From positions 1-38,934 of IMG/VR virus record IMGVR_UViG_3300048598_000503: a stretch of 38,934 nucleotides of DNA, one strand, 5' to 3'. The stretch's first letter is position 1. Every line of letters starts with the position of its first letter. The notes beneath the pieces were generated by a model. The model saw only the letters and a program-made list of their open reading frames with translations, ran no database searches and was not told the origin of the DNA. Shown here piece after piece: positions 9,932-35,824 of this stretch. The position numbers and the translations under genes were made by a program. The stretch is from a virus (Duplodnaviria > Caudoviricetes).

Positions 9932-10438
9932 TCAGACGCGGAAGGCCCGGGTCAGCAGATGACGCGGCGCGGTGACTGAGAGGCCATCGGCGCGGACGAT
10001 GGCGAGGGTCTCGCCGATGACGATGCAGCCGGCAGGGCCATCCGGCCCCGCGACCGTGCCGACATCGCCCTGGCGGGCGAAGGCCGGCGGGATCTCCTGG
10101 AGCACGGCGGCGAGCGCCGCGCCGACATCGGCGAAGCCGTGTCGCGCCATGACGCGGCGGGCGGAGGCCTCGTCGGTCCAGCCGGAAGGCCAGGCGCTGG
10201 CGTCGGTGCCGGTGAGCGCCACCACCATGTCGCGACAGAGGGTGACGCAGTCGAGCCGTCCCCAGCCCGGCTGAAGCGACCGGAGCCGCGCCATCTCCTC
10301 CCGGAAGGCCGGAAGCCAGACACGCTTGCGCGGGGGCGCCTTGGGGAGGGGCGCAGGCCGATTTCGCTTTTTCGTCTTGTGGCCCGTCCCGCCCGCGCAA
10401 GCCGAGGGCGTGACGGGCTCGCTGCCCGACCGTGACAC
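9932..10438 (-). CDS. Tail-associated NlpC/P60-like (DUF6950-type) protein
   Basis: WGRLDC motif and ARQGDVG...AGCIV...AFRV C-terminus; position before J; start (GTG 10438) uncertain. Confidence 0.75.
   Translation of the reverse strand: MSRSGSEPVTPSACAGGTGHKTKKRNRPAPLPKAPPRKRVWLPAFREEMARLRSLQPGWGRLDCVTLCRDMVVALTGTDASAWPSGWTDEASARRVMARHGFADVGAALAAVLQEIPPAFARQGDVGTVAGPDGPAGCIVIGETLAIVRADGLSVTAPRHLLTRAFRV
10382..10420 (+). repeat. Dispersed hairpin element copy A (antisense to late mRNA)
   Basis: GCCCGTC-C-CGCCCGCGCAAGCCGAGGGCG-T-GACGGGC; 10384-10420 is the exact 37-bp reverse complement of 14111-14147. Confidence 0.9.
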
Positions 10439-10439
10439 C

Positions 10440-11024
10440 TTATCGTCCTACCTTGATCTTGATCGACTTGGTGACCGCGACGCTGTCGAAGAAGGCGTCA
10501 CCGGGGTTGGCGGAGCGGAACAGGGCCGGCGAGAAGGTGGCGGTTTCCTTGCGGCCGTGGTCGAAGGAATCGCTTTCCAGCGTCATCACGGCGGAGACTT
10601 CGCCCTTGGCGGTGTCGCGCTCGTGCTCGACCGGACCGCACTTGCCGGACCATTCCGGCGTCACGTCCACCACCCGCCCCTCGGCATCGAGCAGGGCGAA
10701 GTAGAGAGTCACGGGACGGCCGATATAGGCGATCGTTTCGATGCGAGCGAAGGTGTCGGCCGCGTCGGGAATGGCGCGGTCGGCCAGGGTGCGGATGCCG
10801 ACCGAGAGCTGCTGGGCGAGGCCCTGCGAGTAGCTGACGACGTCGAGCTCGAGCACGCCGCCGGGACGATAGGTCAATCCCTCGAAGGTGGTGTCGACGG
10901 AGCCCGACCAGAAGCCGACGGGGCCGCCATCGGCCACGTCGAAGTCGAAGCGCAGCATCCAGCGCTCGCCGACCCGTTCGGCGCGCAGGGCATTGAGGAC
11001 GTCGGTGGAGAGGCCGCGGGCCAT
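10440..11024 (-). CDS. Minor tail / tail-tip assembly protein
   Basis: FWSGSVD..FEGLTY.PGG, YIGRPVTLYFALLD, NPGDAFFD motifs; position after distal tail gene. Confidence 0.8.
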   Translation of the reverse strand: MARGLSTDVLNALRAERVGERWMLRFDFDVADGGPVGFWSGSVDTTFEGLTYRPGGVLELDVVSYSQGLAQQLSVGIRTLADRAIPDAADTFARIETIAYIGRPVTLYFALLDAEGRVVDVTPEWSGKCGPVEHERDTAKGEVSAVMTLESDSFDHGRKETATFSPALFRSANPGDAFFDSVAVTKSIKIKVGR

Positions 11025-11062
11025 GGGGTCTCCGGAGGAGGTGTCGAAGGCGAGGCATCCGG

Positions 11063-11097
11063 CTCATGGCGCCCTCGGCTTGCGCGGGCGACATGAG
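11063..11097 (-). repeat. Dispersed hairpin element copy B
   Basis: Plus strand CTCATG-G-CGCCCTCGGCTTGCGCGGGCG-A-CATGAG; intergenic. Confidence 0.9.
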
Positions 11098-11129
11098 TCA
11101 CGAGGAAAGGCGTCGCCGTGCGGCTGCGA

Positions 11130-11166
11130 CGCGATCCTGCCCTCGGCTCGCGCGGACAGGATCGCG
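11130..11166 (-). repeat. Dispersed hairpin element copy C
   Basis: Plus strand CGCGATCCTG-CCCTCGGCTCGCGCGGA-CAGGATCGCG; 10-bp perfect outer stem; intergenic. Confidence 0.85.
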
Positions 11167-11183
11167 GCACGAAGAAAACAGGG

Positions 11184-11852
11184 TCAGATCTCCGCGAGGA
11201 CCCTGTTGATGGAGACCGCCTTGAAGGCGATCTCGCCGTGAATGGAGAGGACGTGCTCGAAGGATCCGGGCCGCAGATGGAAGAGCTGCAGCGGGCGGTC
11301 GAGCGAGACGGAGACGCCGGAGGCGGTGGCGAGCAGGACGCGCGGGATGACGGACACGGTGGCCGCCCCGCCGGCATCCGCCGTCACGTCGGCAACGATC
11401 TCGTGGACCGTGCGCACGCCGGAGGTGGCGACGATGCCGAGGCGATCGCCCGCCGAGAGCTGATAGCCCGGGCCAAGGCCGGCGAGCGGCACCAGCCGCG
11501 GCGGATCCTGCGGCAGGGCAGCGGAGAGCGTCGGCGTGGGCGGCGTGACGGTCGCCTGGTCATAGGCACGCGGGCGCCGGGTGCGCGGATCGAAGCCGAG
11601 GAAACGGCCGGCGTGAAGGGTGCGCACCCGCTGCACCCAGCCCTTCAGCACCATGTAGTCGTCATAGTCGAGGCCGGAGACGCGGACGGAGAGTGTCCAG
11701 CGCGGATCCACCAGCTCGGCCTCGACGCCAGCGCCGTCGTCGCTGGCCGAGAACTCGCCGACATTCGGCACCTCCATGAGGGCCTCGTCATAGAGGGCAA
11801 CGGGGAGGACCGGCAGGCCGCCGACATCGGCCTGGAGCGTGACGTGGGCCAT
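11184..11852 (-). CDS. Distal tail protein (Dit-like)
   Basis: Immediately after the tape measure gene (TGATG coupling); FLGFDPRTRRPRAY and GYQLSAGDRLG motifs. Confidence 0.8.
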   Translation of the reverse strand: MAHVTLQADVGGLPVLPVALYDEALMEVPNVGEFSASDDGAGVEAELVDPRWTLSVRVSGLDYDDYMVLKGWVQRVRTLHAGRFLGFDPRTRRPRAYDQATVTPPTPTLSAALPQDPPRLVPLAGLGPGYQLSAGDRLGIVATSGVRTVHEIVADVTADAGGAATVSVIPRVLLATASGVSVSLDRPLQLFHLRPGSFEHVLSIHGEIAFKAVSINRVLAEI

Positions 11853-14074
11853 CACATCCCCTTCGAATAGGGCATGACCTCGATGCCGTGGCGATCGGCA
11901 TCCTGGACGGTCGGGACGATGCGGCCGGCCACCTCCGCGTCGCGGCGCTCGACCTCGGCGATGATCGTGGCGCGGTCGGCCGCGGTGACGTTGTTGAAGT
12001 GATAGGTGTTGGCCATGGTGACGCCGCCGGAGCGCGCCTGCAGGGCCTGCATCGCGGCATCGCCCATGGCGAGCGACTGGGCCACGGCGCTGCGCTGGTT
12101 GCGGGTGAGCATCTCCTCGCCGATCTGGCCGATGATCGGCAGCTCGTCCGGTCGCAGCCCGCCGCCGCCGTGGAAGCGGGGGGCGCCGGCGAAGAGGGAG
12201 GCAGGGGCATAGCCCGACACCCGGCCGTCGCCGACAACGCCGCCGTCATGGAAGAGGCCGAACATCGACAGGAAGCCGCCACCGGCCGCCGCCCCGCCGC
12301 CCCCCATGCCGAAGACGCCGCCGAGCAGCCCGAGGAGGCCACCGAGGGACCCCGTGGCAGATCCGGCCGGAGCCGACAGGCCGAGGAGCTTTGCCATGAA
12401 GCCCTGGCCAGTGAGCGCTGCCCGGGCAAGCTCGATGGCGAGTCCCTTGATGACGTCCGACACCTTGCCGCCGCGCAGCGCGACATCGACCAGTTTGTCG
12501 CCGGTCCATTGCAGGGCATCGCCCCAGGCGCGCTGGGCCGCCGTGGCATCTTCGATTGCGTTCCTGAGCCGCTGCTGCGCCTCGGCGAGGGCAGCGACCT
12601 TGTCCCGCTCGGCCTCAGTGAGCCGGCCACCATGTTCGCGGGCCTGCGCCTCAGCCTTGGCGACCTCGGTGAGGCGCGCCCTCTCGACCGCGGTCTTGCC
12701 GATTGTCTCCAGCTCGATCCGCGAGATCTCGATGCCCTTCTCCTGGGCCCGGATGAACTTCTCGATCGCCTCGGTGCGCTTGTCGGTTTCTTCGGCCGAG
12801 GATCCACTGGCGCGCGGCGCCGAACCCGCTCCGGCAGAGGCGGGACGCGCGTTTGGCACCGGAGCGCTGAAGGACACGCCCGGAGAACCGGTCCCCACGA
12901 AACTAAAATTGATGGGCGCTTCCGGGACGTCAGAGGCTTCGGCCCGAGCCTGGCGAGATTGTTCGCGGCGACGCTGCGTGTCAGTCAGGGCGTCAAGCTG
13001 GGCCTGAAGTCCCGACCGCTGAAGCGGCGTCAGCCCGGAATCACGGAGCCGGGTTTCGAGCTGCGTGCGAACATTTGCTTCCGTCGCGACCTGTGCAGCG
13101 CTTATGTCGAACTTCGCTGCATCAGCGGCCTGACGCAGGACGCGGACGAGACCGCCGACGACGCCGATGAGCTTGGTGAACTGTTCCGCTGTCCACGCCG
13201 CGCCGTTGCCGATTTCCGTGGCAAGGCGGGCGCACTCGTCCAGGATCGGCCGGACATTCTTCGACAGCTCCTCGGTGTTGCGCTCCCAGCGCTGCTTCAA
13301 CTCGTCGGCACGGCGGATCAATTCGGGATTGACCAGTGACCCGTCGCGGAGACCGGTGGCGGCCGTCTTCTCGACCTCGGCGAGGAAACCGGAGAAGGAG
13401 GCACGGCCCTGCTCGACCCGCTCGGCGAGATTGTCGAGGCCGAGCTGGCGGGCGAGATCGATGGCCGCGAGGCGCTGCCCCGCTCCTTCCATGTCGCGCA
13501 GCGCGACGAGGACGGCGCGGATCCGCTCCTCGGCGTTCTGGGCATTGGCGAAGAGGGTGGGCGACTCCGAGAGGCCGAAGTCGTTGGTGCCGCGGAAGCG
13601 CCCCTGCAGGAGGTCGCCGGCGCGGTTGGAGACGCCGCTGGCGCGGTCGGCATCGAACTTGTCGCGCGTCGCCTTTTCCAGCGCGGCGAGATCGCTCTCC
13701 AGCTGCTTCGTCTCCAGCCGCAGCTGCCGGGCGCCGTCGACGAAGGCCTGGAAGAAGGTGGTGCCGAGGTTGGAGGCCGCCGCCTTCTCGGCGAGCTTCT
13801 GGAACTTTTCCAGCTCCACCGCACCAGCTGCCGCCGCGGCCGTGAAGGCGGCGAAGGCCGCCACCGCCGCATATTGCATGGCGGTGAGCGAGGCCGCGGC
13901 CTTGAGCGCGGTGACGGCCATGCCACCGAGCGACAGGTTGCTCGACTGGTGGGCCGCGATCGCCGCGGCCGAGACGGAGGCCATGGAGGTGGCGACCGTG
14001 GTGCCGAGCGCCACCACCGCCTTGCGGGCGGCCTCGGTGTCGGACTTGAAGCGCAGGACGATGGGCTGGGCCAT
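11852..14074 (-). CDS. Tail tape measure protein
   Basis: 740 aa Ala-rich helical protein; C-terminal FHDGGVVG...APRFHGGG.LRPDELPII..GEEML motif. Confidence 0.93.
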   Translation of the reverse strand: MAQPIVLRFKSDTEAARKAVVALGTTVATSMASVSAAAIAAHQSSNLSLGGMAVTALKAAASLTAMQYAAVAAFAAFTAAAAAGAVELEKFQKLAEKAAASNLGTTFFQAFVDGARQLRLETKQLESDLAALEKATRDKFDADRASGVSNRAGDLLQGRFRGTNDFGLSESPTLFANAQNAEERIRAVLVALRDMEGAGQRLAAIDLARQLGLDNLAERVEQGRASFSGFLAEVEKTAATGLRDGSLVNPELIRRADELKQRWERNTEELSKNVRPILDECARLATEIGNGAAWTAEQFTKLIGVVGGLVRVLRQAADAAKFDISAAQVATEANVRTQLETRLRDSGLTPLQRSGLQAQLDALTDTQRRREQSRQARAEASDVPEAPINFSFVGTGSPGVSFSAPVPNARPASAGAGSAPRASGSSAEETDKRTEAIEKFIRAQEKGIEISRIELETIGKTAVERARLTEVAKAEAQAREHGGRLTEAERDKVAALAEAQQRLRNAIEDATAAQRAWGDALQWTGDKLVDVALRGGKVSDVIKGLAIELARAALTGQGFMAKLLGLSAPAGSATGSLGGLLGLLGGVFGMGGGGAAAGGGFLSMFGLFHDGGVVGDGRVSGYAPASLFAGAPRFHGGGGLRPDELPIIGQIGEEMLTRNQRSAVAQSLAMGDAAMQALQARSGGVTMANTYHFNNVTAADRATIIAEVERRDAEVAGRIVPTVQDADRHGIEVMPYSKGM

Positions 14075-14110
14075 GGGACCTGTCAGAACGGAGTGTCAGC
14101 GGAGGGCCGG

Positions 14111-14147
14111 GAGCCCGTCACGCCCTCGGCTTGCGCGGGCGGGACGG
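14111..14147 (-). repeat. Dispersed hairpin element copy D
   Basis: Plus strand CCGTC-A-CGCCCTCGGCTTGCGCGGGCG-G-GACGG; intergenic, upstream of tape measure gene. Confidence 0.9.
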
Positions 14148-14180
14148 CAGGGAGGAACGGGCGTCAGGGTGGAGATGAGA

Positions 14181-14217
14181 GGCGTTCACGCCCTCGGCTG
14201 GCGCGGGCGGGAACGCC
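14181..14217 (-). repeat. Dispersed hairpin element copy E
   Basis: Plus strand GGCGTTC-A-CGCCCTCGGCTGGCGCGGGCG-G-GAACGCC; 5 nt after the gpT stop. Confidence 0.9.
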
Positions 14218-14222
14218 GACCA

Positions 14223-14477
14223 TCAGGACTCCCTCGCCTTCAGGAGGCGGGCGATGGCGCTAGGGGGAGGCGGGGGTGCGGGCGGAGCGCCGCCCTTGCC
14301 GGGTGCGGAATGGGCGCGGGCATAGGCGTCCTGCATCATGAGGAACTGCGGCAGGGTGAGGCTTCGCACCTCGGAGGGCGCGAGGCCCATGAACATGCCG
14401 GAGGTCAGAGCCCAGGTGATGTTGCCGGGCCCGACGGCTTGCGAGCGCGAGGGCGCCTTGCCGCCGGGCCTTCGGAT
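14223..14477 (-). CDS. gpT-like tail chaperone C-terminal part, reached by -1 frameshift (absent from ORF track)
   Basis: The -1 frame after AAAAAAA reads IRRPGGKAPSRSQAVGPGNITWALTSGMFMGLAPSEVRSLTLPQFLMMQDAYARAHS...SAIARLLKARES*, with a gpT-like G..P.E...LT..F pattern. Confidence 0.8.
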   Translation of the reverse strand: MRRPGGKAPSRSQAVGPGNITWALTSGMFMGLAPSEVRSLTLPQFLMMQDAYARAHSAPGKGGAPPAPPPPPSAIARLLKARES

Positions 14478-14833
14478 TTTTTTAGGGCGTCATCCACCCC
14501 GAAGGCGTAGGCGCTCATGATCGCCACGGCGAGGCCGAGGTGCTCGAGGATGGGCCGGCCGTCGACCGCCTCCATCACCCATTCGGTGGCCTCGGCATCG
14601 GTGGCGCCGCCGCCGATGAGGCCCAGCCGAACCGTCTCCCGGATGTCGGCATGGCGGAAGACGGGATCCGGCATGCCGGTGATGGGATTGAAGCCCCGGC
14701 CCTGTAGCCGGCCGAGGATCTCGCCCATGCCGGCGCCGCAGGCCCGTTCGAGCCGCTCGATGATGCCGAGCGGCGCGACGTCGAAAGCGCGCTCCCGGCC
14801 GGCGAAGGGCCTGACGATGCGGGTTGACGTCAT
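14405..14833 (-). CDS. Tail assembly chaperone gpG (GTA-gp10-like)
   Basis: FAGRERAF, DIRETVRLGLIGGG motifs; follows tail tube gene with TGATG coupling. Confidence 0.88.
   Translation of the reverse strand: MTSTRIVRPFAGRERAFDVAPLGIIERLERACGAGMGEILGRLQGRGFNPITGMPDPVFRHADIRETVRLGLIGGGATDAEATEWVMEAVDGRPILEHLGLAVAIMSAYAFGVDDALKKSEGPAARRPRARKPSGPATSPGL
14428..14483 (-). other. Programmed -1 ribosomal frameshift signal
   Basis: CTA AAA AAA (A-AAA-AAA, 14483-14477), 6-nt spacer, then 11-bp stem GGCCCGGCGGC/GCCGTCGGGCC. Confidence 0.8.
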
Positions 14834-15288: not shown

Positions 15289-15332
15289 GAGGATCCTCCG
15301 TCAGGCGCTGGCAAGGGTGATGTGGCGGCAGG

Positions 15333-15946: not shown

Positions 15947-15949
15947 GGA

Positions 15950-16965: not shown

Positions 16966-17008
16966 GGCGGCCTCCTGGTGGTTGAGAAGCGGGAACGGAT
17001 GGCGGGTG

Positions 17009-17970: not shown

Positions 17971-17971
17971 G

Positions 17972-18169: not shown

Positions 18170-18193
18170 GGGATCCTCCGAACGGCTCGGAGA

Positions 18194-18217: not shown

Positions 18218-18236
18218 CTTGCCGAACCGACCTCGA

Positions 18237-23579: not shown

Positions 23580-23589
23580 GGCTATTACC

Positions 23590-24018: not shown

Positions 24019-24148
24019 GCATGCGATGCCGATGACTTGGGGGACAGAAGGGGGGCGCCCCGCCCCGCCCTGCCTCGCTCCCCCGAACGATCCCGGGCTC
24101 GGCGTCACCGTGCCGATCGGGCGAGGCAGGGCGCTGCCCTATGCCTCT

Positions 24149-24180
24149 GAAATGACGAAGCCCGGCGCGATGGCCGGGCT
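24149..24180 (-). terminator. Terminator between antiterminator gene and late operon (tR'-like)
   Basis: AGCCCGGC-CATCGC-GCCGGGCT stem followed by TCGTCATTTC (imperfect U-tract). Confidence 0.6.
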
Positions 24181-24260
24181 GTTCAGGTCGTCTATGGCAT
24201 CCGCACGGCGGGGTGAATCACACCCTCCGTGCCGCCGCCACCCTCGCCGATGTCATCCGG

Positions 24261-24821
24261 TCAAGCCGACCGTCGCCTGGCGATTCGAGCTACCTCTGTG
24301 TGGATCTCATTCTCCCCACCGAGGATGCGCAACAACAGGCTGCAACGGCCGCGCCTGTCAAGCGACTTGATTCTCGCGAGATGACCGTCGAACGGCCCAC
24401 CCTTCAAGGTCACCTCGTCACCCGCTTGAAACAACACGACATTCGGCTGCGCAGCGCGGTCCGGCATCGCCGTCATCAGCCGCTCCACGAAGCCCTTCGG
24501 CAGCCGCAGCGGCGACCAGCTCGGCGCGCCGGTCGTCAGAATCCGCGACACGCCGAAAGCCGAAGCGATTCGCGGCCAGGGGTCGCGCACCGCGTCGAAG
24601 GGCACGAAGAGGTAGTGCGGAAAGGTCGGCTTCTGCACCACCGTCTCGGTGCCCTTGCGGCCGCAGCGCAGGGTCACCGGCATGGTCGGCGCATAGCACT
24701 GGAAGCCGAGCCGGGCGATCGAGCGGCTGGCCAGCGCCTCGCTCTGCGGCTTCGTCGCCACCACGTACCAGTCGAGCATCGGCACGCCGTCCGTCATCCC
24801 GTCCATCCCGCCCTCGCTCAT
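24261..24821 (-). CDS. NusG/RfaH-family transcription antiterminator (late gene regulator)
   Basis: NGN domain (WYVVATKPQSE, FPHYLFV, GVSRIL) plus KOW (GDEVTLKGGPFDG); occupies the lambda Q position. Confidence 0.92.
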   Translation of the reverse strand: MSEGGMDGMTDGVPMLDWYVVATKPQSEALASRSIARLGFQCYAPTMPVTLRCGRKGTETVVQKPTFPHYLFVPFDAVRDPWPRIASAFGVSRILTTGAPSWSPLRLPKGFVERLMTAMPDRAAQPNVVLFQAGDEVTLKGGPFDGHLARIKSLDRRGRCSLLLRILGGENEIHTEVARIARRRSA

Positions 24822-26436: not shown

Positions 26437-26972
26437 CGCCTCCACGCATAGACACGGGTTGCAGAAGCGCCGAGGCGGCCGGGCATCATCCCCTCCGCCA
26501 TCAGCACGCGCTCCACGGCCCCGACATCGGCCGTGCCGTCGGGCCTCATCCAGTCGGGCGGGCCGCCGCCCTCCCGCCGTCCGGCGATATGCAGGGCGCG
26601 CAGCCCCGCCTTGGCCGCCGCCGTGTCGAGGAAGCCCGCCACCCGCACCCAGCCGGGCGAGCCGATCGCCGGCCCCATCCATTTCCGCAGCACCGGCACG
26701 AGCCCCGGCGCACCGGCTTCTGGCGTCGGCACGATCGCCCAGGACGCGTAGATCTGCCCGCCGGTGACCCTTTGGCGGTCGACGGTCAGGAGGCCGGCGG
26801 TGAAGTGCTCCGGCGGGCGGAATGGGTGAATGGTGAAGCGCCGGCCATAGGCGTGCTCGGCCGCGAGTTGCGCCATCTCCGCCGAGGCCGGCACGAAGCC
26901 GTCGGGGTCGGCGAGGCAGGCGGCCAGCCAGCGCGCGGCGTCGAAGTGGCCATGTTCGGCGAAGGCGGTCAT
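26433..26972 (-). CDS. Hypothetical protein (179 aa)
   Basis: GGAGG RBS, ATGA coupling on both sides (starts MTAFAEHGHF). Confidence 0.75.
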   Translation of the reverse strand: MTAFAEHGHFDAARWLAACLADPDGFVPASAEMAQLAAEHAYGRRFTIHPFRPPEHFTAGLLTVDRQRVTGGQIYASWAIVPTPEAGAPGLVPVLRKWMGPAIGSPGWVRVAGFLDTAAAKAGLRALHIAGRREGGGPPDWMRPDGTADVGAVERVLMAEGMMPGRLGASATRVYAWRR

Positions 26973-28201
26973 GGTGCCTCCGCCTCGAAGCCCCACGCGT
27001 CCCAGCCGGGCCGCGACTGCCTCGCGTTCAGCTCGATTTTCGGCAGGGTCGGGAAGTAGTCCTCGATCAGCCGGTGGAAGTTCTCCGGCTTCTCCGAATG
27101 ACGCCCCAGCGGCGCGGTGACGACGCTCTGCCACTGGGTGCCGGGCGCCGGGCATGGCGGGCTGCCGCGCGTGCCGAGGAGCAGCAGCTCGTGCCGGTTC
27201 CGGTTCCAGCGGCCGAGCCCGGCCCGGTCCTTGGCCCAGCAGAACTGCGAGCGATAGGTGAAGCCCCAGCGCGCCATCACCTGCAGCGCCTCGGGCAGCA
27301 TGGGCACGGTCGCCCACAGGAACAGCACGCTGTCCTCGGCCGCGATGCCCGCCACGTCCCGCCGGCAGATCGTCTCGAGGTCGGAGGTCGGGTAGTGGTT
27401 CTCCGGCGACCGGTCCATGCCGGTCTCGTCGCTCCAGTTTTCGAAGCGCCATTCCGGGTCGGCATAGATCACGCCATAGCGCCGCTCCGGCAGCGCTCGC
27501 TGCTTCGCGCCGAGGCGCGCTTCCTTCTCCGCCCTCAGGGCCTTTTTCCGGGCGGTGCTCTCGTCGCGGAAGTGCTTGGCCGCTGCGAGGATCTCCGCCT
27601 TGCCCCGCGCCACGATCTGCGCCTGTTCCGACAGCGGCAGCGACGCCAGGGCGGCGGCGGCCGAGACGGAGACGTCGCCGGCCTCGACAGCCGCAGCCAA
27701 CCCGTCCACGCCGTCCCGGCGCACCATCCGAGCCCGCTCGATGGAGGCCGAGCCGACATTGAGCAGCTGCGCGGCCCGATCGGCGGAAACTCCATCAATT
27801 GATGGAGTTTTGCCCGGCCGCCCCTCGCCCAGCGTCGCCAGCTTCGCCCCGACCATGGCCCTCTGGCTCTCGCTCAGATGCCGGCGGTGCAGGTTGCGCG
27901 ACAGCACCCAGGCCAGCGGGTCCATGTCGACCGTGCCGACCGCGAATCCGAACCGGTCGAACAGGCTCTGCGGATGGGGAATCGGGCTCCCCTCGTCGGA
28001 TGGGGCGAAGAACCCGGCCACCAGCCCGGCGCGGTAGCGGTTGCGCCCGTCGAGGATCGCCCCGTCCAGCAGCATGATTGGCTCGCGCACCCCGTGCCGG
28101 CGAATGTCCTCCACCAGCGCGTCGAAGGCCTCGCCCTCGATCGCCGGGAACAGCTCCGCCAGCGGGTGGATCGGCAGCATCGCGGGTGCGGCGTCGCTCA
28201 T
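26969..28201 (-). CDS. ParB-like N-terminal domain fused to MT-A70 family adenine methyltransferase
   Basis: IHPLAELFP, ILDGRNRYRA, NLHRRHLSESQRA; then YGVIYADPEW, NHYPT, LFLWAT, HELLLLGTRG, HSEKP, KIELNAR, GWDAWG. Confidence 0.92.
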   Translation of the reverse strand: MSDAAPAMLPIHPLAELFPAIEGEAFDALVEDIRRHGVREPIMLLDGAILDGRNRYRAGLVAGFFAPSDEGSPIPHPQSLFDRFGFAVGTVDMDPLAWVLSRNLHRRHLSESQRAMVGAKLATLGEGRPGKTPSIDGVSADRAAQLLNVGSASIERARMVRRDGVDGLAAAVEAGDVSVSAAAALASLPLSEQAQIVARGKAEILAAAKHFRDESTARKKALRAEKEARLGAKQRALPERRYGVIYADPEWRFENWSDETGMDRSPENHYPTSDLETICRRDVAGIAAEDSVLFLWATVPMLPEALQVMARWGFTYRSQFCWAKDRAGLGRWNRNRHELLLLGTRGSPPCPAPGTQWQSVVTAPLGRHSEKPENFHRLIEDYFPTLPKIELNARQSRPGWDAWGFEAEAP

Positions 28202-29037
28202 GCGGCCACCCGCGACAGGATGATATCGAGCCGGCCCTTCAGCCGCGCCTGTAGCGCCGAGGCAATGGTGAGGCCGCCCGCCCGCGCATCCGCATGGGCC
28301 TTGTCGAACTCGCGGATGACCTTGACCTGGTCAAAGGCGGCGATGATCTCCGCCTCCGTCCGGCGGAGACGGCGATAGTCGGCGACGAGCAGCGTCACCG
28401 CCTCCATGATCGGGCCGAGCAGCATGCCGCGCGCGTCGTTCGAGGTCTCGCGGATGCAGCGCAGGCCCAGCACCGTGTCCGGCTCGCCGACGCGCTCGAT
28501 GAGCGCGGAGATCTTGCCGATCGCCATGGTCTCACCGGGCATCTGGTTGAGCACCGACTTCGGGTAGCGCAGCACGGTCACGCCGGCGGCCCTGGCCACC
28601 CGCTCCACCGCCAGCGCCTTCTCGTCGCCGGCGGCCACCGCCGCCTTGTGCACGGCCATGCCGTGCATGCGCGTCGTCACGCCGTTGATGGCGGTGAAGG
28701 CTTCGGCCTGCCCCCCCCTCGCGGCGAGGATGATCTGGCACGGCACGCTCTCGAAGCCGCAGAGCGCCGCGGCCGTGGTGCGGTGCTGGCCGTCGACGAT
28801 GGCAAAGCGCCCGCCGGCCACCGGCGCCACCACCACGGGCGAGAAGGACGACCAGCGGAAGCTCTCGGCGATCTTGCGGATGTTGCGCCGCCCGACCTCC
28901 GTCACCGGCCGCTGATAGGCCTCGTCCACCACCAGGCGGTCGATGCGGATCCAGTCGAGCTGCGGCGCCGGCCCGGCCGCATCGGGGCTAGAGGGCGAGG
29001 TGACGACGATCTTGGTCACCGGCAGGATCGGTGTCAT
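28198..29037 (-). CDS. ParB/Srx-like nuclease-domain protein
   Basis: LVVDEAYQR, FAIVDGQHRTTAA, QAEAFTAIN; GGAGG RBS before MTPILP. Confidence 0.85.
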   Translation of the reverse strand: MTPILPVTKIVVTSPSSPDAAGPAPQLDWIRIDRLVVDEAYQRPVTEVGRRNIRKIAESFRWSSFSPVVVAPVAGGRFAIVDGQHRTTAAALCGFESVPCQIILAARGGQAEAFTAINGVTTRMHGMAVHKAAVAAGDEKALAVERVARAAGVTVLRYPKSVLNQMPGETMAIGKISALIERVGEPDTVLGLRCIRETSNDARGMLLGPIMEAVTLLVADYRRLRRTEAEIIAAFDQVKVIREFDKAHADARAGGLTIASALQARLKGRLDIILSRVAA

Positions 29038-29078
29038 CAGGGCCTCCATGGCCGAGGGGTTGAGACGCCCCGCCGCCC

Positions 29079-29204
29079 TCACGCGGCGAGGAACGCGAAG
29101 ACCAGCGCGGCCAGCGCGCCGACGACAAAGACGGAGATGACGAAGCCGGGGCCGAGAGCCCCGTCGGGCGGGTCGCGCGGCTCGCGGTACTGGGGGCCGG
29201 TCAT
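29079..29204 (-). CDS. Small membrane protein (41 aa; absent from ORF track)
   Basis: MTGPQYREPRDPPDGALGPGFVISVFVVGALAALVFAFLAA*; ATGA-coupled to upstream gene. Confidence 0.7.
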   Translation of the reverse strand: MTGPQYREPRDPPDGALGPGFVISVFVVGALAALVFAFLAA

Positions 29205-29509
29205 CGTCCGCGCTCAGTCTTCGCGCCGGCGCGAATGATCGTCTTCGCGTGGCCCGACACCTCCGGCAGCATGTCGGCCATGACCTTAAGCAGCTCGTCC
29301 TCGAACTTGGGACCAACCAGCAAAAAGGACAGGCCGACGGTAGCGGTCAGCATCCCACGAACCATCACCTCGACCTGATCAGAAGGGCTTAGTTCGCAAT
29401 AGAGTGTCGACCGAGTGGCCGTCAGTGCGGCCTCGCCCATGGCGAGGCGGATCGCCTCGCAGCAGGCGTCGAATGGGTTCGTCGGGTCGAAGGCCTTGCG
29501 CTCATACAT
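29201..29509 (-). CDS. Hypothetical protein (102 aa)
   Basis: GGAG RBS, overlapping start/stop; slightly atypical codon usage. Confidence 0.75.
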   Translation of the reverse strand: MYERKAFDPTNPFDACCEAIRLAMGEAALTATRSTLYCELSPSDQVEVMVRGMLTATVGLSFLLVGPKFEDELLKVMADMLPEVSGHAKTIIRAGAKTERGR

Positions 29510-30080
29510 CGGTTTTCTCCGCCACCCAGCCGGGCGCGGGATCCAGCACTGCCGCGAGGAAAGCCGGCCCGAACACCGCGACGAGGCGCAGCATGTGTCC
29601 GCCGGACAGTTCCGAAGGCCCGTTCCAGGCCATGGCGTTGCGGATCGTGCCTTCCGGAATCCCGGTCAGCGCCGCCACGCGCAGGTGCGGCTTCTGCCCC
29701 TCGAATTCCTTGCGCAGGAAGTTGCGCACGGCGCCCGGCTTCACCCGGCCCGCAAACCGCGCGGCATCGAATCGGGAGCCGGGCGACGCGTTCTCCGTCG
29801 CCGGCAACGCGGATCCGGCAGCGACGGCCGGAGCAGTCTGGCCCACATCGCCCCCCACCGGAGCCATCACCATGAACCGCCGCCGCCCCGCCTCCATCGC
29901 AGCGAAGGCGCCCGCGAAACTCGCCACGCCCTGGAGGCTCATGGCCGCCGCGTTGCTCGCCGCCACGCCGAGACCCTGCCGAAAGCCATCACCAAGCCGG
30001 AAGACGTTCGGGGCCGAACTCCGCCGGCGCTTCGGCTGCACGGCCTTCGAGCGCTTCTGGATGTCGCGTTTCCCGCTCAT
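29502..30080 (-). CDS. Putative CII-position transcriptional regulator (C-terminal HTH)
   Basis: Directly after cro; RVAALTGIPEGTIRNAM HTH-like segment, FGPAFLAAVL motif. Confidence 0.65.
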   Translation of the reverse strand: MSGKRDIQKRSKAVQPKRRRSSAPNVFRLGDGFRQGLGVAASNAAAMSLQGVASFAGAFAAMEAGRRRFMVMAPVGGDVGQTAPAVAAGSALPATENASPGSRFDAARFAGRVKPGAVRNFLRKEFEGQKPHLRVAALTGIPEGTIRNAMAWNGPSELSGGHMLRLVAVFGPAFLAAVLDPAPGWVAEKTDV

Positions 30081-30334: not shown

Positions 30335-30344
30335 GGGGGGGATT

Positions 30345-30409
30345 GATACATGATGTATTATTCCGAGGTCAATACACCATGCATCATCCACAGCGATACG
30401 CTGCGTATT
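30345..30409. promoter_or_regulatory. OR: three 15-bp operators and divergent PR/PRM promoters
   Basis: GATACATGATGTATT (30345-59), AATACACCATGCATC (30371-85), GATACGCTGCGTATT (30395-409); consensus RATAC-N5-GTATY; TTGACC on minus strand at 30372-30367. Confidence 0.88.
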
Positions 30410-31027: not shown

Positions 31028-31090
31028 CCCGGCTTGACCGCCTCCGGCGGTTGCGGAATCCTCATCCCACAACAGAAGGGGGAGGCGGGC

Positions 31091-31528
31091 ATGCGACAAG
31101 CATGGTTGGCGACGATGGCGCTCGCACTCACCGGCTGTGCCGGCATGCAGCACGCCATGGATCACTACTCAGGCATCGAGCCGGTCGAGGTGCAGATGCC
31201 AGACGACCGCTACCGCGTCTTCGACAAGCCTACCGACGGCCGCATGATGGTCACCTCCAGCATCGGCAGCGCAGCCGGGCAAGGCATGGGATCGGGCCTG
31301 ATGTTGGGAATGGTCGACACCACGCCGCCCCTGCCGCACTTCCAGGCGGCGGCAGAGGCCCACCTCGTCGCAACCGGCCGGGCCCAGTGCCGCGTCACCC
31401 AGGGCTACATCGTCATCAAGCCCCAGTTCGAGTTCCGCTACACCTGCGAACCGGCCACGCTCGCTCTCCCGCCCAGAGCAGCCGCACCAGGGTCCATCCC
31501 GCCCACATCGGCCCAGCCGGGCCGCTGA
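31091..31528 (+). CDS. Lipoprotein downstream of cI (exclusion/immunity-region candidate)
   Basis: GGGGGAGG RBS; MRQAWLATMALALTGC lipobox; two further Cys. Confidence 0.85.
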   Translation: MRQAWLATMALALTGCAGMQHAMDHYSGIEPVEVQMPDDRYRVFDKPTDGRMMVTSSIGSAAGQGMGSGLMLGMVDTTPPLPHFQAAAEAHLVATGRAQCRVTQGYIVIKPQFEFRYTCEPATLALPPRAAAPGSIPPTSAQPGR

Positions 31529-31530
31529 CC

Positions 31531-32205
31531 ATGGACGACCCGCGCCACAATCCTCCCGCTCACCTCCCGCCGAAGCGCAACCTGCGTCTTATCGTCGGCG
31601 GTGCGGCCGGCACCGCGCGCGATCTCGCCGGCAGCGTCACCGGCGCGGCGATCACCGGCGCCGGGCAGGTCGCGACCACAGCCGGCCATGCGACGGGAGC
31701 GGCAGCGCGCCTTGCCGGCAAGGCGGCTGGCGTCACCCTTTCCGCGGCCGCAGCAGCTGCAACCACGGCGGCCGGACTCGCCAGGGACGGCGCATCGGCG
31801 GCAGCCGACGCCGCTGTGGCGGGAGCCGGCAAGGCGGCGGATCTCGCGCGCACCGCCACCGGCGCCGTGAAAGCCGGGGGCGAGGCCTCGGCCGAGGCCG
31901 CCGCAAAGGCCGCCAAGGCCACGGTGCAGGCCGGCACCCAGGTCGTCACCGCCCCGGTCCGCGCCGTCGCGGCTGTGGGGAGCGCCACCGCCGGCGTCGC
32001 CCGCGGTGCCGGCGAGGGCGTCCGGTCTGTCTGGCGCACCTCCGTGCTCATCGTCTGGGGCGTCATCGGCACCGTCGCGCTCATCGCCATCGCCGTCGTC
32101 TTCGCCCCGCGCCAGCAGCCCCAGACCATCACCATCCAGGTCACCGTGCCGCCCGGCGCATCGCCGGCCATCCTCGCTCCGGCAAGCTCCCGTCCCTCCC
32201 GCTGA
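31531..32205 (+). CDS. Ala/Gly/Thr-rich repeat protein with C-terminal TM anchor
   Basis: Starts 2 nt after the lipoprotein stop; TM VLIVWGVIGTVALIAIAVVF; its stop abuts OL. Confidence 0.75.
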   Translation: MDDPRHNPPAHLPPKRNLRLIVGGAAGTARDLAGSVTGAAITGAGQVATTAGHATGAAARLAGKAAGVTLSAAAAAATTAAGLARDGASAAADAAVAGAGKAADLARTATGAVKAGGEASAEAAAKAAKATVQAGTQVVTAPVRAVAAVGSATAGVARGAGEGVRSVWRTSVLIVWGVIGTVALIAIAVVFAPRQQPQTITIQVTVPPGASPAILAPASSRPSR

Positions 32206-32281
32206 TTCGCCATGTATCAACACCGCCTCGCCCACCTTGATACATGGCGTATTGACAATACATGATGTATTAAATTAGCCT
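32204..32281 (+). promoter_or_regulatory. OL: three operators and sigma70-type PL promoter
   Basis: GATTCGCCATGTATC (32204-18), GATACATGGCGTATT (32239-53), AATACATGATGTATT (32257-71); TTGACA (32252-57), 18 nt, TAGCCT. Confidence 0.88.
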
Positions 32282-32311
32282 CCCGGTCATCGCTGACCCC
32301 AGGAGGCCGTC

Positions 32312-32722
32312 ATGTGCCTGCAAGCCTACCTATCCCCCTCCGACCACAGGCTGCCCGAGGGCTGGCCGAACCCCCGCGCCTTCATGGCCGACCCGGCCGC
32401 CGTCGCCGCCCGCATGGACGAGGACGGCCGCCGCATCGCCGCCGAGAAAGGCGACTGCACCGAAGGCGACCTCACCCGCCTCGGCTGGCGGCTGGAGCAG
32501 GTGAAGGCCCACCAGCTGCGCACTCTGGCCGCATGGGACCGGCTTGATGCCGAGGTCGGGGCCTTGCTACAGCAGCTCGCCGAAATCCGCGAAGACCACG
32601 CGCCGGTCGAAGCCAGTGACATCGACCTCGTCGACAGCGCTCCCGCCTGCCTTGCCCCCGACGTCCGCGAGCCCGACCTCACCGACATGGACATCGCCTT
32701 CGGCGTCGAGAGGGCGGCGTGA
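32312..32722 (+). CDS. Hypothetical early protein, first gene of PL operon
   Basis: AGGAGG RBS; CTEGDLTRLGW motif. Confidence 0.82.
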   Translation: MCLQAYLSPSDHRLPEGWPNPRAFMADPAAVAARMDEDGRRIAAEKGDCTEGDLTRLGWRLEQVKAHQLRTLAAWDRLDAEVGALLQQLAEIREDHAPVEASDIDLVDSAPACLAPDVREPDLTDMDIAFGVERAA

Positions 32723-32979
32723 TGGCGGTTATCGACGAGATCGCGGCCGAGCGCGACCGACAGCTCGCCAAGGGCTGGACGCCTAACCACGATGACCAGC
32801 ACACCGCCGGCGAGATCATCGACGCACCGGATTGGGGCGCCGTCGCACGTCTGGATGTGGCGACGTCCATCGCGACGCCACACGAGCGGCGGAGGCTCCT
32901 GGTTCAAGCCGCTGCGCTGATCGTCGCCGAGATCGAGCGGCTGGATCGGGCAGCTGACGCTGCGGGGTCCGCGTCATGA
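32722..32979 (+). CDS. Conserved phage hypothetical protein
   Basis: IAAERDRQLAKGWTPNHDDQH...RRRLLVQAAALIVAEIERLDR, a motif I recognise from many phages. Confidence 0.85.
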   Translation: MAVIDEIAAERDRQLAKGWTPNHDDQHTAGEIIDAPDWGAVARLDVATSIATPHERRRLLVQAAALIVAEIERLDRAADAAGSAS

Positions 32980-33275
32980 CCGCCGCCCCCGTCGCCTGCC
33001 TGCAGGGCGAGCTGGAATCGGCCCTGCTCGCCGAGGTGCAGCCCTGGATCAACGCCTATGCCGCGGCCCGCCCCGGCGCCACCGCCACGGATCTGCTGAA
33101 CGACCTCGCCCTTGTGCTCGTCGCCGTCCAGACCGCCGTGGCGAAGGCCCAGGCCAACGCTGGCAAGGCGGCGAGCGTCGCCGATGTCGTGGTGCTCATG
33201 GAGGTGGCCTGGCCGCCCCTCCTGCGCGCCACCCGCCTCACCATGGAACAGCTGAACCGGAGCGCCGCCGGATGA
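32976..33275 (+). CDS. Hypothetical protein (99 aa)
   Basis: ATGA coupling on both sides. Confidence 0.75.
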   Translation: MTAAPVACLQGELESALLAEVQPWINAYAAARPGATATDLLNDLALVLVAVQTAVAKAQANAGKAASVADVVVLMEVAWPPLLRATRLTMEQLNRSAAG

Positions 33276-33612
33276 CGACCCGCGAACCCCTGCCCAGCGC
33301 CGGCCGGCCTCCACCATCAGCCTCTTCATCGGCAACGACACCTATGCCGTCACCGCCGGCTTCTATCCCGACGGCCGTGTCGGCGAGGTCTTCGTCACCG
33401 CGCCGAAGGTCGGCACCGACATCGAGGCGATCCTCCGAGACGGCGCCATCCTTCTCTCCTTCGCCCTGCAGCACGGCGCGAGCCTGGACGAGCTCGTCCA
33501 CGCCATGACCCGCAACGGCGCCGGCGACGTCGCCAGCATCCTCGGCCGGCTTGCCGAGGCGGTGAAGGAGAACCTCGCCGAAGAGTTCCTGCGCCTCGCA
33601 AGAGCCTTGTGA
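33272..33612 (+). pseudogene. Stand-alone NrdJ C-terminal-like (TSCPD-related) protein, frameshifted near codon 8
   Basis: MTTREPLP in one frame, then QRRPASTISLF...VTAGFYPDGRVGEVF...GTDIEAILRDGAILLSFALQHG...RAL* in the -1 frame; adding one C at 33293-33295 restores the ORF. Confidence 0.8.
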
Positions 33613-33661
33613 CCCCCTGGCCACCTGATCCCTCAACCCCTCGCTGCCCCGGAGCCTCGCC

Positions 33662-35824
33662 ATGGCCGCTGCATCGCCGACCACTCTCCCCTTCGCCCAG
33701 TTGCGCCCCGGCCATGAGGCCTCACCGCCGGTGAACATCCGCGCCACCGATCCGGCCTCCGCCGATGTCGCGGCGCTCGCCGCCAACATTGCCGACCGCA
33801 TCGCGGCCGGCCAGAGCCCGCTCATCGAGCCGCTGGTGGTGGTCGAGGGGCCGAAGCCCCGCGGCGGTGCCCGGCTTTACTTCGTCTGCAACGGCGGCCG
33901 GCGCCTCGCCGCCCTCACCCGCCTCGTCGACCAGGGCATCATCACCGAGGCGCAGCAGCTGCCCGTGGTGGTGGAGGGGAAGGCCGCCGGCCTCGAGGCC
34001 TCCACCACGGCGGCCGTCCTCGCCGCGCCTCACCACCCCGTCGACCAGTTCGAGGCCTTCGCCCGCATCGCCGCCACCCGTCCCGGCGGCGCCGAGGGCA
34101 ATGTGGAGTTCATCGCCCGGCGCTTCGGCCTCGGCCTTCGCCGGGTGCGCCAGGTGCTGGCCCTCGGCAATCTCAGCCCCGCCGTGCGCAAGGCCTGGAA
34201 GGAGGGCCGCATCAGCCGCGAGACGGCCGAGGCCTTCGCCATCGAGCCGGACGCCGAGGTCCAGTCCACCCTTCTCGACAACCTCTCGCACCGTGGCTTC
34301 TCCATTTCGCCCTATGAGGTGCGCCGCTCCCTTCTGGCCGACCGCATTTCCGCGAGCAGCGACAAGGTCGGCTTCGTCGGCCTCGACACCTATCTCGCCG
34401 CCGGCGGCACGCTCACCGGCGACCTCTTCACCGACGAGCGCTACATCGAGCACCCGGCCCTGTTGCAGCGCCTCGCGCTGGAGCGGCGCGAGGCCGTCGA
34501 GCGGGATTTCCGGGATGCCGGCTGGGGCTTCATCTTCTGGCGCAACACGCCGGAGGCGCAGAACTTCTGGAGCTCGCAGCAGGAGCCGCGCGAGGCGGTC
34601 TGGACGCCCGAGGCCGAGGCGCGGGCCGACGTCATCCGCAACGAGATCGCCGCCATCGATGCGGCGCGGCAGGCCCGCGAGGCCGATGCCGAGGACGACG
34701 ACGCTGAAGACGACGACGCCGAGATCTATGAGGACGAGCCCGAGGATGACGTCGCCGACTGGCGCGAGGGCGACGACGAGCCGGCCGCGCCCGCCGCCGA
34801 TTCCCTCGCCGACCAGCGCGCCGCGCTGCATGCGGAACTGGTAAGCCTCCGGCAGGCAGCCGAGTGCGCCGGCTGGACGCGGGAGGAGCGCGCCGGCCTC
34901 GCCGTCATCCTCGACTGGCGCCAGGGCAGCCTGACGGTCGACGCCGGCTATGTGCCGCCGGCGCTGGCGACGCACGAGGCCGACACCGCGGAGGGTGTGC
35001 CCGAGGACGACAGGGAGGGCGACGACACGCCGCAGCCGCCAGCCGAACCGGAAGCCCCCGGCCTGCCCCGCGCCGCGCTGCAGTCGCTCTCCCTCGTCGC
35101 CAACCGGGCCGCCGCCGCGACGATCGCGGCCGACGCGGATCTCGCGCTCTCCCTGCTCGCCGCCAGCTGGGTGGCGCGCGCCAACGCCCTTCACACACCC
35201 GGCAACAGCGTGCCGCTCATCGTCGCCTCCCGCGGCCTTCACGACGGGCCGGCCAGCGACATGCTGACGGAGCTGGTGGCGGGCGACGGCGGCCGGCCGG
35301 ACCGCTGGGACAAGACCCGTCGCATCGCCGACTTCGCCGGCCTCGCATCGGCGATCGCCGACATGTCGCGGCCGCGGCGGCTGGAACTGGTCGCGGCCCT
35401 CGCCGCGGCGGCCGTCGACCTCACCCACGACACGATCGAAAACCGCAGCGGCAGCGCCAAGAACGTCGACGCCGGTGGCGTGGCCAGCTTCCTCGCCACC
35501 CTGCCGGCCCAGGCCTTCGAGACCAATGCGCGGCTCATTCTCTCCGCCCCCGGCGAGGCCGAGGCGATCTTCGGCGACTGGCCGAAGGAGGCGTTGGTCG
35601 ATGCCATCCGCGCCATGGACGGCGACGAGGCCGCGAAACAGGCGGCCAGGGCGAAGAAGGCCGCCCTCGTCACCATGGTCGCCGACCGCGCCCGCGGCAC
35701 CGGATGGCTGCCGAAGGGCCTGAGGCTTGCGTCGCCCGCGCAAGCCGAGGGCGCCGCTTCGTCGCAGCCGGACGGTGACGCCATGGATGACGGCGATGCC
35801 GACGACGAACAGGAAGCCGCGTGA
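33662..35824 (+). CDS. Large ParB/RepB/Spo0J-family protein with acidic linker
   Basis: LIEPLVV, CNGGRRLAAL, HPVDQFEAF, HTH (IARRFG...VRQVLALGNLSP), YLAAGGTLTGDLF, GTGWLP. Confidence 0.9.
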   Translation: MAAASPTTLPFAQLRPGHEASPPVNIRATDPASADVAALAANIADRIAAGQSPLIEPLVVVEGPKPRGGARLYFVCNGGRRLAALTRLVDQGIITEAQQLPVVVEGKAAGLEASTTAAVLAAPHHPVDQFEAFARIAATRPGGAEGNVEFIARRFGLGLRRVRQVLALGNLSPAVRKAWKEGRISRETAEAFAIEPDAEVQSTLLDNLSHRGFSISPYEVRRSLLADRISASSDKVGFVGLDTYLAAGGTLTGDLFTDERYIEHPALLQRLALERREAVERDFRDAGWGFIFWRNTPEAQNFWSSQQEPREAVWTPEAEARADVIRNEIAAIDAARQAREADAEDDDAEDDDAEIYEDEPEDDVADWREGDDEPAAPAADSLADQRAALHAELVSLRQAAECAGWTREERAGLAVILDWRQGSLTVDAGYVPPALATHEADTAEGVPEDDREGDDTPQPPAEPEAPGLPRAALQSLSLVANRAAAATIAADADLALSLLAASWVARANALHTPGNSVPLIVASRGLHDGPASDMLTELVAGDGGRPDRWDKTRRIADFAGLASAIADMSRPRRLELVAALAAAAVDLTHDTIENRSGSAKNVDAGGVASFLATLPAQAFETNARLILSAPGEAEAIFGDWPKEALVDAIRAMDGDEAAKQAARAKKAALVTMVADRARGTGWLPKGLRLASPAQAEGAASSQPDGDAMDDGDADDEQEAA
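35729..35757 (+). repeat. Dispersed hairpin element copy F (inside ParB 3' end, sense orientation)
   Basis: GCG-T-CGCCCGCGCAAGCCGAGGGCG-C-CGC; translated as ASPAQAEGAA just after the GWLPKGLR end motif. Confidence 0.85.

Follow-up and report, generated by a model that had tools for sequence, protein, structure and literature searches.

The window analyzed here, the whole 38,934-nt stretch of the Caudoviricetes virus record IMGVR_UViG_3300048598_000503, carries a short hairpin in six dispersed copies, raising the question of whether these are RNA signals along the late transcript, such as loading sites for the NusG paralogue of the phage, or copies of a mobile palindrome.

The six copies and their anatomy

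We identified 6 matches to the 21-nt core pattern at up to 3 mismatches in the window, starting at 10390 (+), 11070 (-), 11138 (-), 14121 (-), 14189 (-), and 35733 (+), against a chance expectation of 0.71 +/- 0.83, and 0 of 100 shuffled windows reached 6, which bears out the six dispersed copies of the original prediction. Its further details were also recovered from the sequence, including the loop variants (GCAA in 4 copies, GCGA, and GCCA), the G-U pair in the stem of copy C (T-G in the sequence), the C/U mismatch below the core in 5 copies (C/T in DNA), the mRNA-sense orientation of 5 of the 6 copies, and the 2 tandem pairs. The element is larger than had been proposed: the unit consists of a near-invariant hairpin tip and a previously overlooked 3' YGACRC motif 27-29 nt downstream, and totals ~70-78 bp. 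The copies and their surroundings are as follows:

9932-10438, minus strand: DUF6950 ORF carrying copy A in its N-terminal extension
10373..10445, plus strand: copy A, core 10390-10410, tail motif 10433-10438, antisense to the late operon
11024..11183, minus strand: 160-nt insertion with copies B and C, relative to the empty allele
11035..11107, minus strand: copy B, core 11070-11090, tail 11041-11046
11103..11175, minus strand: copy C, core variant 11138-11158, tail 11110-11115, directly after the Dit stop codon
14086..14158, minus strand: copy E, core 14121-14141, tail 14093-14098, upstream of the tape-measure start
14154..14226, minus strand: copy D, core 14189-14209, GCCA loop, tail 14161-14166, directly after the stop codon of the preceding gene
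33662-35824: ParB-like ORF with copy F in frame in its C-terminal tail
35716..35788, plus strand: copy F, core 35733-35753, tail 35776-35781

Copy A, contrary to an intergenic placement, lies antisense within an in-frame extension of its ORF. Copies B and C, like copies D and E, follow each other with a 68-nt period, and a TGA-to-TGA unit of 58 nt was rejected because the tandem arrays of the repeat have a period of 68-70 nt. Copy B is followed by an SD-like GGAG and then by the start of the tail-protein gene.

RNA folding of the six 41-nt copies gave z-scores of -4.4, -3.2, -4.3, -1.7, -4.0, and -1.0, with an alternative fold preferred for copy F. The GNRA tetraloop with a 3-nt bulge that had been proposed was not predicted; folding instead places a CAAGC pentaloop on a CG/CG stem of 2 bp, below which lies a G.A mismatch, and in a natural variant from prophage G018 (1 copy only) this mismatch is repaired and the GNRA fold is impossible. 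The self-complementary flanks of variable sequence were upheld, as the outer stems covary. Among 403 arm cells, 309 were Watson-Crick, 5 G-T, and 6 A-C, and the cells with changes comprised 54 two-sided and 4 one-sided cases. Judged from these pairings, nearly all-Watson-Crick arms without G-U excess would fit upkeep at the DNA level.

The YGACRC tail was exact in 21 of 31 copies (background 0.8%) and had at most 1 mismatch in 29 of 31 (background 9.7%), including 7 of the 8 antisense copies; exact tails were found in 18 of 23 sense copies versus 3 of 8 antisense copies. A G occupied position +19 in 25 of 31 copies, with YG at about +28/29. The repeat forms a stem-loop from an imperfect palindrome of 20-50 nt, as REP/BIME elements do. 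No conserved GTAG/CGTC tag was present at the stem foot, CGTC/TGTC lying ~14 nt off on the opposite strand. Target-site duplications were absent, with own-flank similarity of 4.59/6 versus 4.54/6 across flanks, as were terminal inverted repeats, the inverted repeat being internal. The ends are ragged, and sharp element ends could not be defined.

Filled and empty sites and the distribution of the repeat

Comparison of relatives revealed filled and empty alleles at several sites, in rows that include several near-identical records and with the direction of gain or loss unrooted. At the BC junction, 5 of 11 rows had no copy, 4 had a single copy, and 2 had two; at the DE junction, 4 of 10 rows had no copy, 3 had a single copy, and 3 had two. 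Among 10 rows for site A, 1 was empty, 5 held a copy in sense, and 4 held one in antisense; the site lacked a copy in G065 and was occupied in the orientation opposite to the window in G003, G066, and G067. In the empty BC allele, the Dit stop overlaps the tail-protein start (TGATG), and the exact 160-nt skip was identified in 5 of 8 public sequencing runs. Reciprocal presence and absence at 2 additional junctions was also seen in another lineage, whose tail module differs. Filled and empty alleles in close relatives occur together with in-frame insertion into genes, as in MITEs and Rickettsia palindromic elements (RPE). No junction was filled in every phage compared, and G065 had zero copies across 39.5 kb from integrase to lysis.

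The 14 combinations of site and orientation comprised 10 sense and 4 antisense, a bias that was not significant overall (p = 0.18), and all 7 purely intergenic sites were sense (p = 0.016). Copy A was closest to copies at another site, DE (82%), and 2 single-phage antisense copies were closest to copy F (76-78%). Copy F was intact in G001 and G003, mutated at the tip in G002, and decayed in a Phreatobacter prophage; at its site, the tail and the full core (21 of 21 bases) were kept between phages with 55%-identical ParB-like proteins. The BC site was common to the window and a prophage ~68% identical in DNA. The age of these 2 sites suggests selection or gene conversion after insertion.

We found true copies only in prophages of 3 Phreatobacter-family genomes and in related viral contigs. 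The exact core occurred in 14 stretches among 185,579 species genomes, with 4 clear family members, all in prophages. Chromosomal matches in the carrier genomes were at control level, and high-copy chromosomal dispersal of the REP kind was not seen in these incomplete assemblies; the RNA-model genome searches scored the best 150 candidates per genome, so that weak copies may escape. Many random host-chromosome copies, which the original prediction had named as evidence against itself, were not observed, and neither was membership of a known Rfam family, the other such outcome, with 0 matches to E 1 on the window. For the D/E pair, the best Rfam match (E 1.6) was below the gathering threshold, no CRISPR-DR match was found, and INPHARED phages and PLSDB plasmids held no real match. 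Among 39 viral and 28 metagenome pattern matches, true copies were restricted to this phage group, L184, and L185, the remainder lacking the stem; relatives of the L185 Dit gene were not found in viral contigs. Further, 73 more distant morphogenesis loci yielded no match better than E 0.007 and no other repeated long hairpin family by a strict script, which also missed the divergent G018 copies. No RNA dataset carrying the element was among the sequencing runs listed, and run X18, labelled possible RNA, is probably DNA. No paper describing the element was found among the open-access papers searched.

A candidate miniature mobile palindrome

Of the options raised originally, the third, a REP-like mobile palindrome, fits best with a phage-associated, structure-conserving repeat at polymorphic junctions. 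On the sequence comparisons above, we estimate a probability of about 0.5 that the hairpins are copies of a phage-confined, REP/RPE-like, non-autonomous miniature mobile palindrome tolerated at gene ends. A putative enzyme acting on folded single-stranded phage DNA, with HUH/Y1-like logic, would recognize the tip and cut or join near the downstream motif, copying the unit without target duplication, and recombination between phages through the shared core could then swap, double, or remove units. The packed genome would act as a filter, with insertions persisting only at gene ends. Sense insertions would be tolerated between genes because the hairpin lies at least ~40 nt from the next start and its 3' end often provides a CCGGA ribosome-binding site, and antisense insertions would be kept solely where they encode in-frame protein tails. 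Consequences for mRNA stability or translational coupling, if any, would be secondary.

We searched for a mobilizing enzyme in several ways. The Y1 transposase (PF01797) was not found in the 3 carrier genomes G004, G005, and G018, and no HUH, reverse-transcriptase, or transposase Pfam match was identified in 53 window ORFs or in 102 of 167 filtered ORFs from 4 relatives. No tnpA(REP)/RAYT flanked by repeats was present near the copies or in the carrier genomes, gene co-occurrence identified no phage gene cleanly separating carriers from G065, and an atlas look-up of the conserved ORF at 29502-30080 returned hypothetical clusters only. The unseeded chromosome counts against a host mobilizing enzyme, which should seed the chromosome too. 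These negative results weigh against the mobile reading, as do the lack of target duplication and of sharp ends, the age of some sites, and the uniform sense orientation of the 7 intergenic sites.

Rickettsia palindromic elements and prokaryotic MITEs, as far as covered in sections of PMC10969869, resemble the repeat in their in-frame insertion into genes of alphaproteobacterial systems, non-autonomy, and presence or absence between relatives. In contrast, the repeat is shorter (~70-78 bp versus about 150 bp), has an internal rather than a terminal inverted repeat, produces no target duplication, is phage-confined, and occupies gene termini only, in either orientation and several frames. Non-autonomous derivatives of IS200/IS605 offer a further comparison. 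The IS200/IS605 ends, in the extracts of PMC8266576, likewise combine a subterminal hairpin with a short conserved motif at a fixed spacing; they are strand-asymmetric and leave no target duplication. Unlike them, the repeat has a single hairpin, with no guide tetranucleotide found at its foot and no autonomous partner found; among features of such ends, we saw 1 fixed-distance motif together with ragged ends, and found no TnpA.

Tentatively, and with a probability well short of an even chance, the repeat may represent a novel kind of mobile junction cassette specific to phages, in which a tip-recognized unit of ~75 bp would be cut at a ruler-fixed motif by an enzyme outside recognized transposase families and carry its own ribosome-binding site. 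Such a unit could slot between virion genes whose translation is coupled, break the coupling and thereby adjust virion stoichiometry, and spread from phage to phage without colonizing the host chromosome. Bacterial chromosomes are known to harbor short mobile palindromes (REP, RPE, MITE). The present family is confined to temperate phages, in which genomes that are ~90% identical differ naturally in whether exact stop/start overlaps are filled or empty; both the mover of the repeats and their effect on translational coupling in a virion operon are thereby directly testable.

Alternative explanations and the late leader

The strongest rival, which we consider doubtful, is a portable RNA junction module under selection in the phage. 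Its hairpin would form in the nascent transcript, where the tip would be read by a conserved factor of the host, either the RNA polymerase surface, a Nus factor, or a ribonuclease; the YG motif, 27-29 nt farther along, would mark a site of pausing or cleavage shortly before the following ribosome-binding site. The module would act by put-like antitermination or by processing that tunes structural-protein ratios, and would spread between junctions by rare illegitimate recombination. An RNA-level role may exist: sense orientation is found at each of the 7 purely intergenic sites and in 10 of the 14 combinations, and exact tails favor sense copies. An invariant tip despite very different phage regulators is what a host-encoded reader demands, the element is limited to phages of one host family, copy F is conserved within coding sequence, and the +19 G with YG at ~+28/29 resembles consensus pause geometry. 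The element is, however, dispensable, as G065 has none and no junction is always filled; 4 sites are antisense, several with intact tails; the sense bias falls short of significance overall; and the arms lack a G-U excess, whereas several G-U changes occur in the RNA stems of the late leader in these phages. If this reading were true, phages would be adding and dropping, gene by gene, a regulatory module read by a host factor.

Quite improbable is a recombination linker, in which hairpins are kept as marks of module boundaries that promote gene exchange or capture between phages. A copy arrives in G066 and G068 at the 3' end of an extra gene (phrog_874) that 4 relatives lack, another lies in G002 where a divergent allele rejoins the common one, hybrid and truncated tandems exist, and in 2 copies a lesion begins at the same tip position. 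Against it, both flanks of the BC, DE, and second-lineage junctions are equally conserved with or without the element.

Similarly low odds attach to the first proposal made for the hairpins, that they repeatedly load the phage NusG paralogue in the manner of nut or ops sites. The relevant features are as follows:

24050..24260, minus strand: single-copy conserved late leader behind the NusG paralogue gene
24159-24180: terminator-like hairpin with a T-rich tail, followed by a long GC stem, in the late leader
24261..24821, minus strand: NusG paralogue, best NCBIfam model RfaH, below its cut-off

As with lambda nut boxB, HK022 put, RfaH ops, and the LoaP leader hairpin, the repeat is a conserved-tip hairpin in long phage operons, the gene for the paralogue lies directly upstream of the late genes, and every carrier with its early region available encodes one. 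The boxB and put sites are fixed, one- or two-copy, promoter-proximal, and sense. The same holds for RfaH ops in the passages of PMC7819879 on RfaH, where the protein loads at a pause element and one leader loading suffices. Unlike these, the repeat is missing from the leader, polymorphic, antisense in 4 of 14 site/orientation combinations, and does not co-vary with the paralogue: that of G065, which lacks copies, is 89% identical to the paralogue of the window and 97% to that of carrier G002, and carriers with paralogues only 35-48% identical have the same tip, which argues against loading sites. The late leader is not part of the repeat, and its terminator-like hairpin is conserved in all 8 phages examined; by position and conservation, this terminator is a likelier target of the paralogue than the repeat. 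A phage repressor operator was also rejected by inference, as conservation is higher in the spacer than in the half-sites and the repressors are divergent.

Very improbable, and largely refuted, is a REP family of the host chromosome that entered prophages, or an RNA anti-CRISPR that mimics a CRISPR repeat: a palindromic GC stem with a GCAA-type loop, the tag of alphaproteobacterial CGTC repeats on the other strand of the tail, and GTTC..GAAC arms of copy D like type I-E repeats of related bacteria stand against the rarity of exact cores, chromosomal matches at control level, a tag ~14 nt from the stem rather than adjacent, no Cas6e found in the 3 carrier genomes, and type I-E repeats of 5 relatives without the tip sequence and mismatch.

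The repeat differs from REPs in its 0-6 copies in prophages only, with none on the chromosome and no tnpA(REP), and in conservation at the tip rather than the foot, with a motif that lies ~14 nt past the stem and keeps a constant spacing from the loop. REP/BIME/REPIN elements (GTAG, CGTC; TnpA(REP)/RAYT), in portions of PMC8266576 and PMC3733652, are likewise short imperfect palindromes with a conserved stem irregularity, arranged in tandem and inverted, near stop codons and in ORF termini. The CGTC-tagged alphaproteobacterial palindromes, which parts of PMC3733652 place in ORF termini, share with the phage repeat CGTC/TGTC on one strand and the lack of a linked transposase.

Structure and phage confinement of the repeat

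Six dispersed hairpins were confirmed where the original prediction had placed them, with 6 matches to the 21-nt tip pattern (core) against 0.71 expected.

10373..10445, plus strand: copy A, DUF6950 start
11035..11107, minus strand: copy B, Dit/tail-protein junction
11103..11175, minus strand: copy C, Dit/tail-protein junction
14086..14158, minus strand: copy E, chaperone/tape-measure junction
14154..14226, minus strand: copy D, chaperone/tape-measure junction
35716..35788, plus strand: copy F, C-terminal tail of the ParB-like ORF

RNA fold z-scores were below -3 in 4 of the 6 copies (copy E, -1.7; copy F, -1.0). The hairpin itself stood, but not the bulged GNRA tetraloop proposed for its tip, which is predicted to be a pentaloop on a 2-bp stem over a G.A mismatch; one divergent copy (n = 1) mends this mismatch, and the GNRA option is then gone. 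Across 29 distinct copies, 82% of cells were paired, and two-sided changes (54 cells, vs 4 one-sided) were more numerous than in any of 500 shuffles or any slid control, the copies being mutually related and their pairing changes not independent events. Outer arms paired at 5.35 of 8 positions with their own partner vs 3.0 with the arms of other sites (0 of 10,000 shuffles). When 31 copies were anchored on the tip, a tail motif, YGACRC, began 27-29 nt past it, exact in 21 and with at most 1 mismatch in 29 (background 0.8% and 9.7%), these scores coming from the very copies from which the motif was derived. The stem is followed by a weaker TCGCAGCC-like stretch and preceded by a pyrimidine-rich, TCGTG-like one. 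Inspection by eye shows a TCCGGA-like hexamer past the tail at three different junctions, providing SD-like sequence there, and akin letters also follow some antisense copies. Single intergenic insertions measure 76-79 nt, and the tandem period is 68-70 nt. Two unrelated copies, at site F of genome G002 (L032:1937-2009) and in public run X5 at window 11111-11190, are damaged from the identical tip position onward with flanks intact, possibly marking a point in the loop that is prone to cutting or mutation.

Across 185,579 species genomes, the exact core turned up in 14 stretches; 4 were family members located in two prophages, and the other 10 had short stems and lacked the tail. Covariance models gave strong matches in 3 of 22 genomes of the Phreatobacter-containing family, always on prophage contigs, the third prophage (G018) carrying four divergent copies and differing in its head and tail modules. 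Two of 401 genomes from the order matched in a pattern search, one of them through a stemless chance match. Viral and metagenome scans returned copies from this phage group only, and none was found in 73 more distant phage loci, INPHARED, or PLSDB. Rfam gave no match, and numerous copies strewn over a host chromosome, which would have refuted the original prediction, were not seen: in the two carrier genomes with the exact core, matches outside the prophage were no higher than in controls.

Presence/absence polymorphism at gene junctions

The Dit/tail-protein junction was empty in 5 of 11 aligned phage records, with stop and start overlapping, and held one copy in 4 and two in 2; the chaperone/tape-measure junction (10 records) was empty in 4, with one copy in 3 and two in 3; and the DUF6950 start (10 records) was empty in 1, with a sense copy in 5 and an antisense copy in 4, all of these counts including several near-duplicate records. 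The exact 160-nt skip at the Dit/tail-protein junction was present in 5 of 8 public runs, and the runs also contained additional alleles of single, hybrid, and empty form. G018 and a metagenome contig about 90% alike (L185) showed reciprocal filled and empty states at two other junctions. Copy A was nearest to the tape-measure-junction copies (82%) rather than to other alleles of its own site, and this sequence kinship suggests that units have moved, or undergone conversion, from one locus to another. At site A of G001 (L031:6880-7000), a sense-orientation tail lacking its hairpin stands orphaned after an antisense copy, an arrangement that suggests nested insertion or replacement. In G066 (L117:6014-6721), an extra gene (phrog_874) precedes the DnaA-C-domain gene and bears an antisense copy at its 3' end, gene and copy both being missing in four relatives.

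A proposed mobile palindrome and its alternatives

We estimate a probability of roughly 50% that the repeat is a non-autonomous miniature mobile palindrome. Its unit anatomy, phage confinement, indel polymorphism, two orientations, and cross-site kinship were observed; an enzyme would copy it via folded single-stranded DNA, recombination would turn over its alleles, and insertions would survive at gene ends only. Of the options in the original prediction, the REP-like mobile palindrome fits best. No enzyme that would move the repeat was found: a Y1 transposase was absent from carrier genomes, no transposase-type Pfam domain was present in 53 window ORFs or 102/167 filtered ORFs from relatives, and neither a co-segregating gene nor a target duplication at the insertions was found. 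Set against published accounts of REP/BIME (PMC8266576, PMC3733652) and RPE (PMC10969869), the repeat is alike in working, but differs from the former in having no foot tag, chromosomal copies, or cognate transposase and from the latter in having no terminal repeats or duplication. It is real, phage-confined, and palindromic and is best placed with short mobile palindromes, apparently previously undescribed; searches of the open-access literature found no description of it. That it represents a new class of phage-specific mobile junction cassette is a tentative suggestion.

The scarcity of G-T cells and of one-sided changes in the arms fits a structure that has to form on either DNA strand, or arms homogenized by template switching; in the latter case covariation alone is no proof of selection. 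The tip asymmetry would be erased by template-switch correction, and its upkeep calls for a reader protein or for repeated reseeding. Copy F keeps its full core and tail between phages whose ParB-like proteins are 55% identical, which counts against pure selfishness, although the copy at this site carries mutations in G002 and has decayed in the Phreatobacter prophage.

The main rival, somewhat unlikely and compatible with a mobile palindrome, is an RNA module read by a host factor. Of the 14 site/orientation combinations, 10 are sense (p = 0.18) and the 4 antisense ones each overlap a coding terminus; the 7/7 purely intergenic sites in sense orientation (p = 0.016) favor such a module. Structured RNAs usually build up G-U pairs, however, and the late-leader stems of these phages contain several, whereas among 403 arm cells (13 positions in 31 copies) only 5 were G-T, with 309 Watson-Crick and 6 A-C. 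Loading sites for the phage NusG paralogue, as originally proposed, are improbable: G065 (39.5 kb, integrase to lysis; CheckV completeness 55%, as in its relatives) encodes a paralogue 89% identical to that of the window and 97% to that of G002 yet has no copy, and carriers whose paralogues share only 35-48% identity have a common tip. We consider a recombination linker equally improbable. A host REP or CRISPR mimic is the least credible, carrier chromosomes showing no excess and strong family matches lying on prophage contigs only. Five genomes of relatives of the likely host (L219-L223) carry type I-E CRISPR arrays next to Cas6e.

The late leader and phage gene order

24261-24821, minus strand: NusG paralogue (RfaH the best model, below cut-off)
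24050-24260, minus strand: late leader, single-copy, behind the NusG paralogue

In 8 of 8 phages examined, the paralogue gene is directly followed by a terminator-like hairpin with a T-rich tail. In the window, the leader holds a GANTC-containing promoter-like segment and then the hairpin; after the hairpin, most of the eight phages have a long GC-rich multibranch stem containing GGTGACGCC, as in the tail of the repeat. Lambda pairs Q with tR', a layout that the paralogue gene and leader terminator resemble, and the leader may be a control region of the Q/tR' kind or a structured RNA. By analogy, its terminator would be a likelier action site of the paralogue than the repeat copies; RfaH is known to load a single time, in a leader (PMC7819879). 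Among close relatives, paralogues of an 86-97% type and a 46-49% type are swapped on otherwise near-identical backbones.

The window spans the complete IMG/VR provirus record, with the following gene order.

Minus strand, HK97-like siphovirus late operon: lysis, fibre, J, DUF6950, tail protein, Dit, tape measure, chaperone, tube, head genes, terminase, HNH
Beyond HNH: NusG paralogue, replication genes, repressor region, ParB-like gene, integrase

Its host is likely a member of the Phreatobacter-containing family, because a prophage sharing about 90% DNA identity with the window resides in G005, a genome that the genome search assigned to the family of a Phreatobacter sp. An O-acetyltransferase (Acyl_transf_3; 3956-5020, plus strand), on the opposite strand between the fibre and lysis genes, is likely a surface-modifying moron, with no counterpart in the relatives compared. 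An MT-A70 methyltransferase with a ParB-like N-terminus and a ParB/DUF6551 gene were annotated at 26969-29316 (minus strand), and the 720-aa ParB-like protein (33662-35824, plus strand) occurs as two types among close relatives (95% vs 27% identity).
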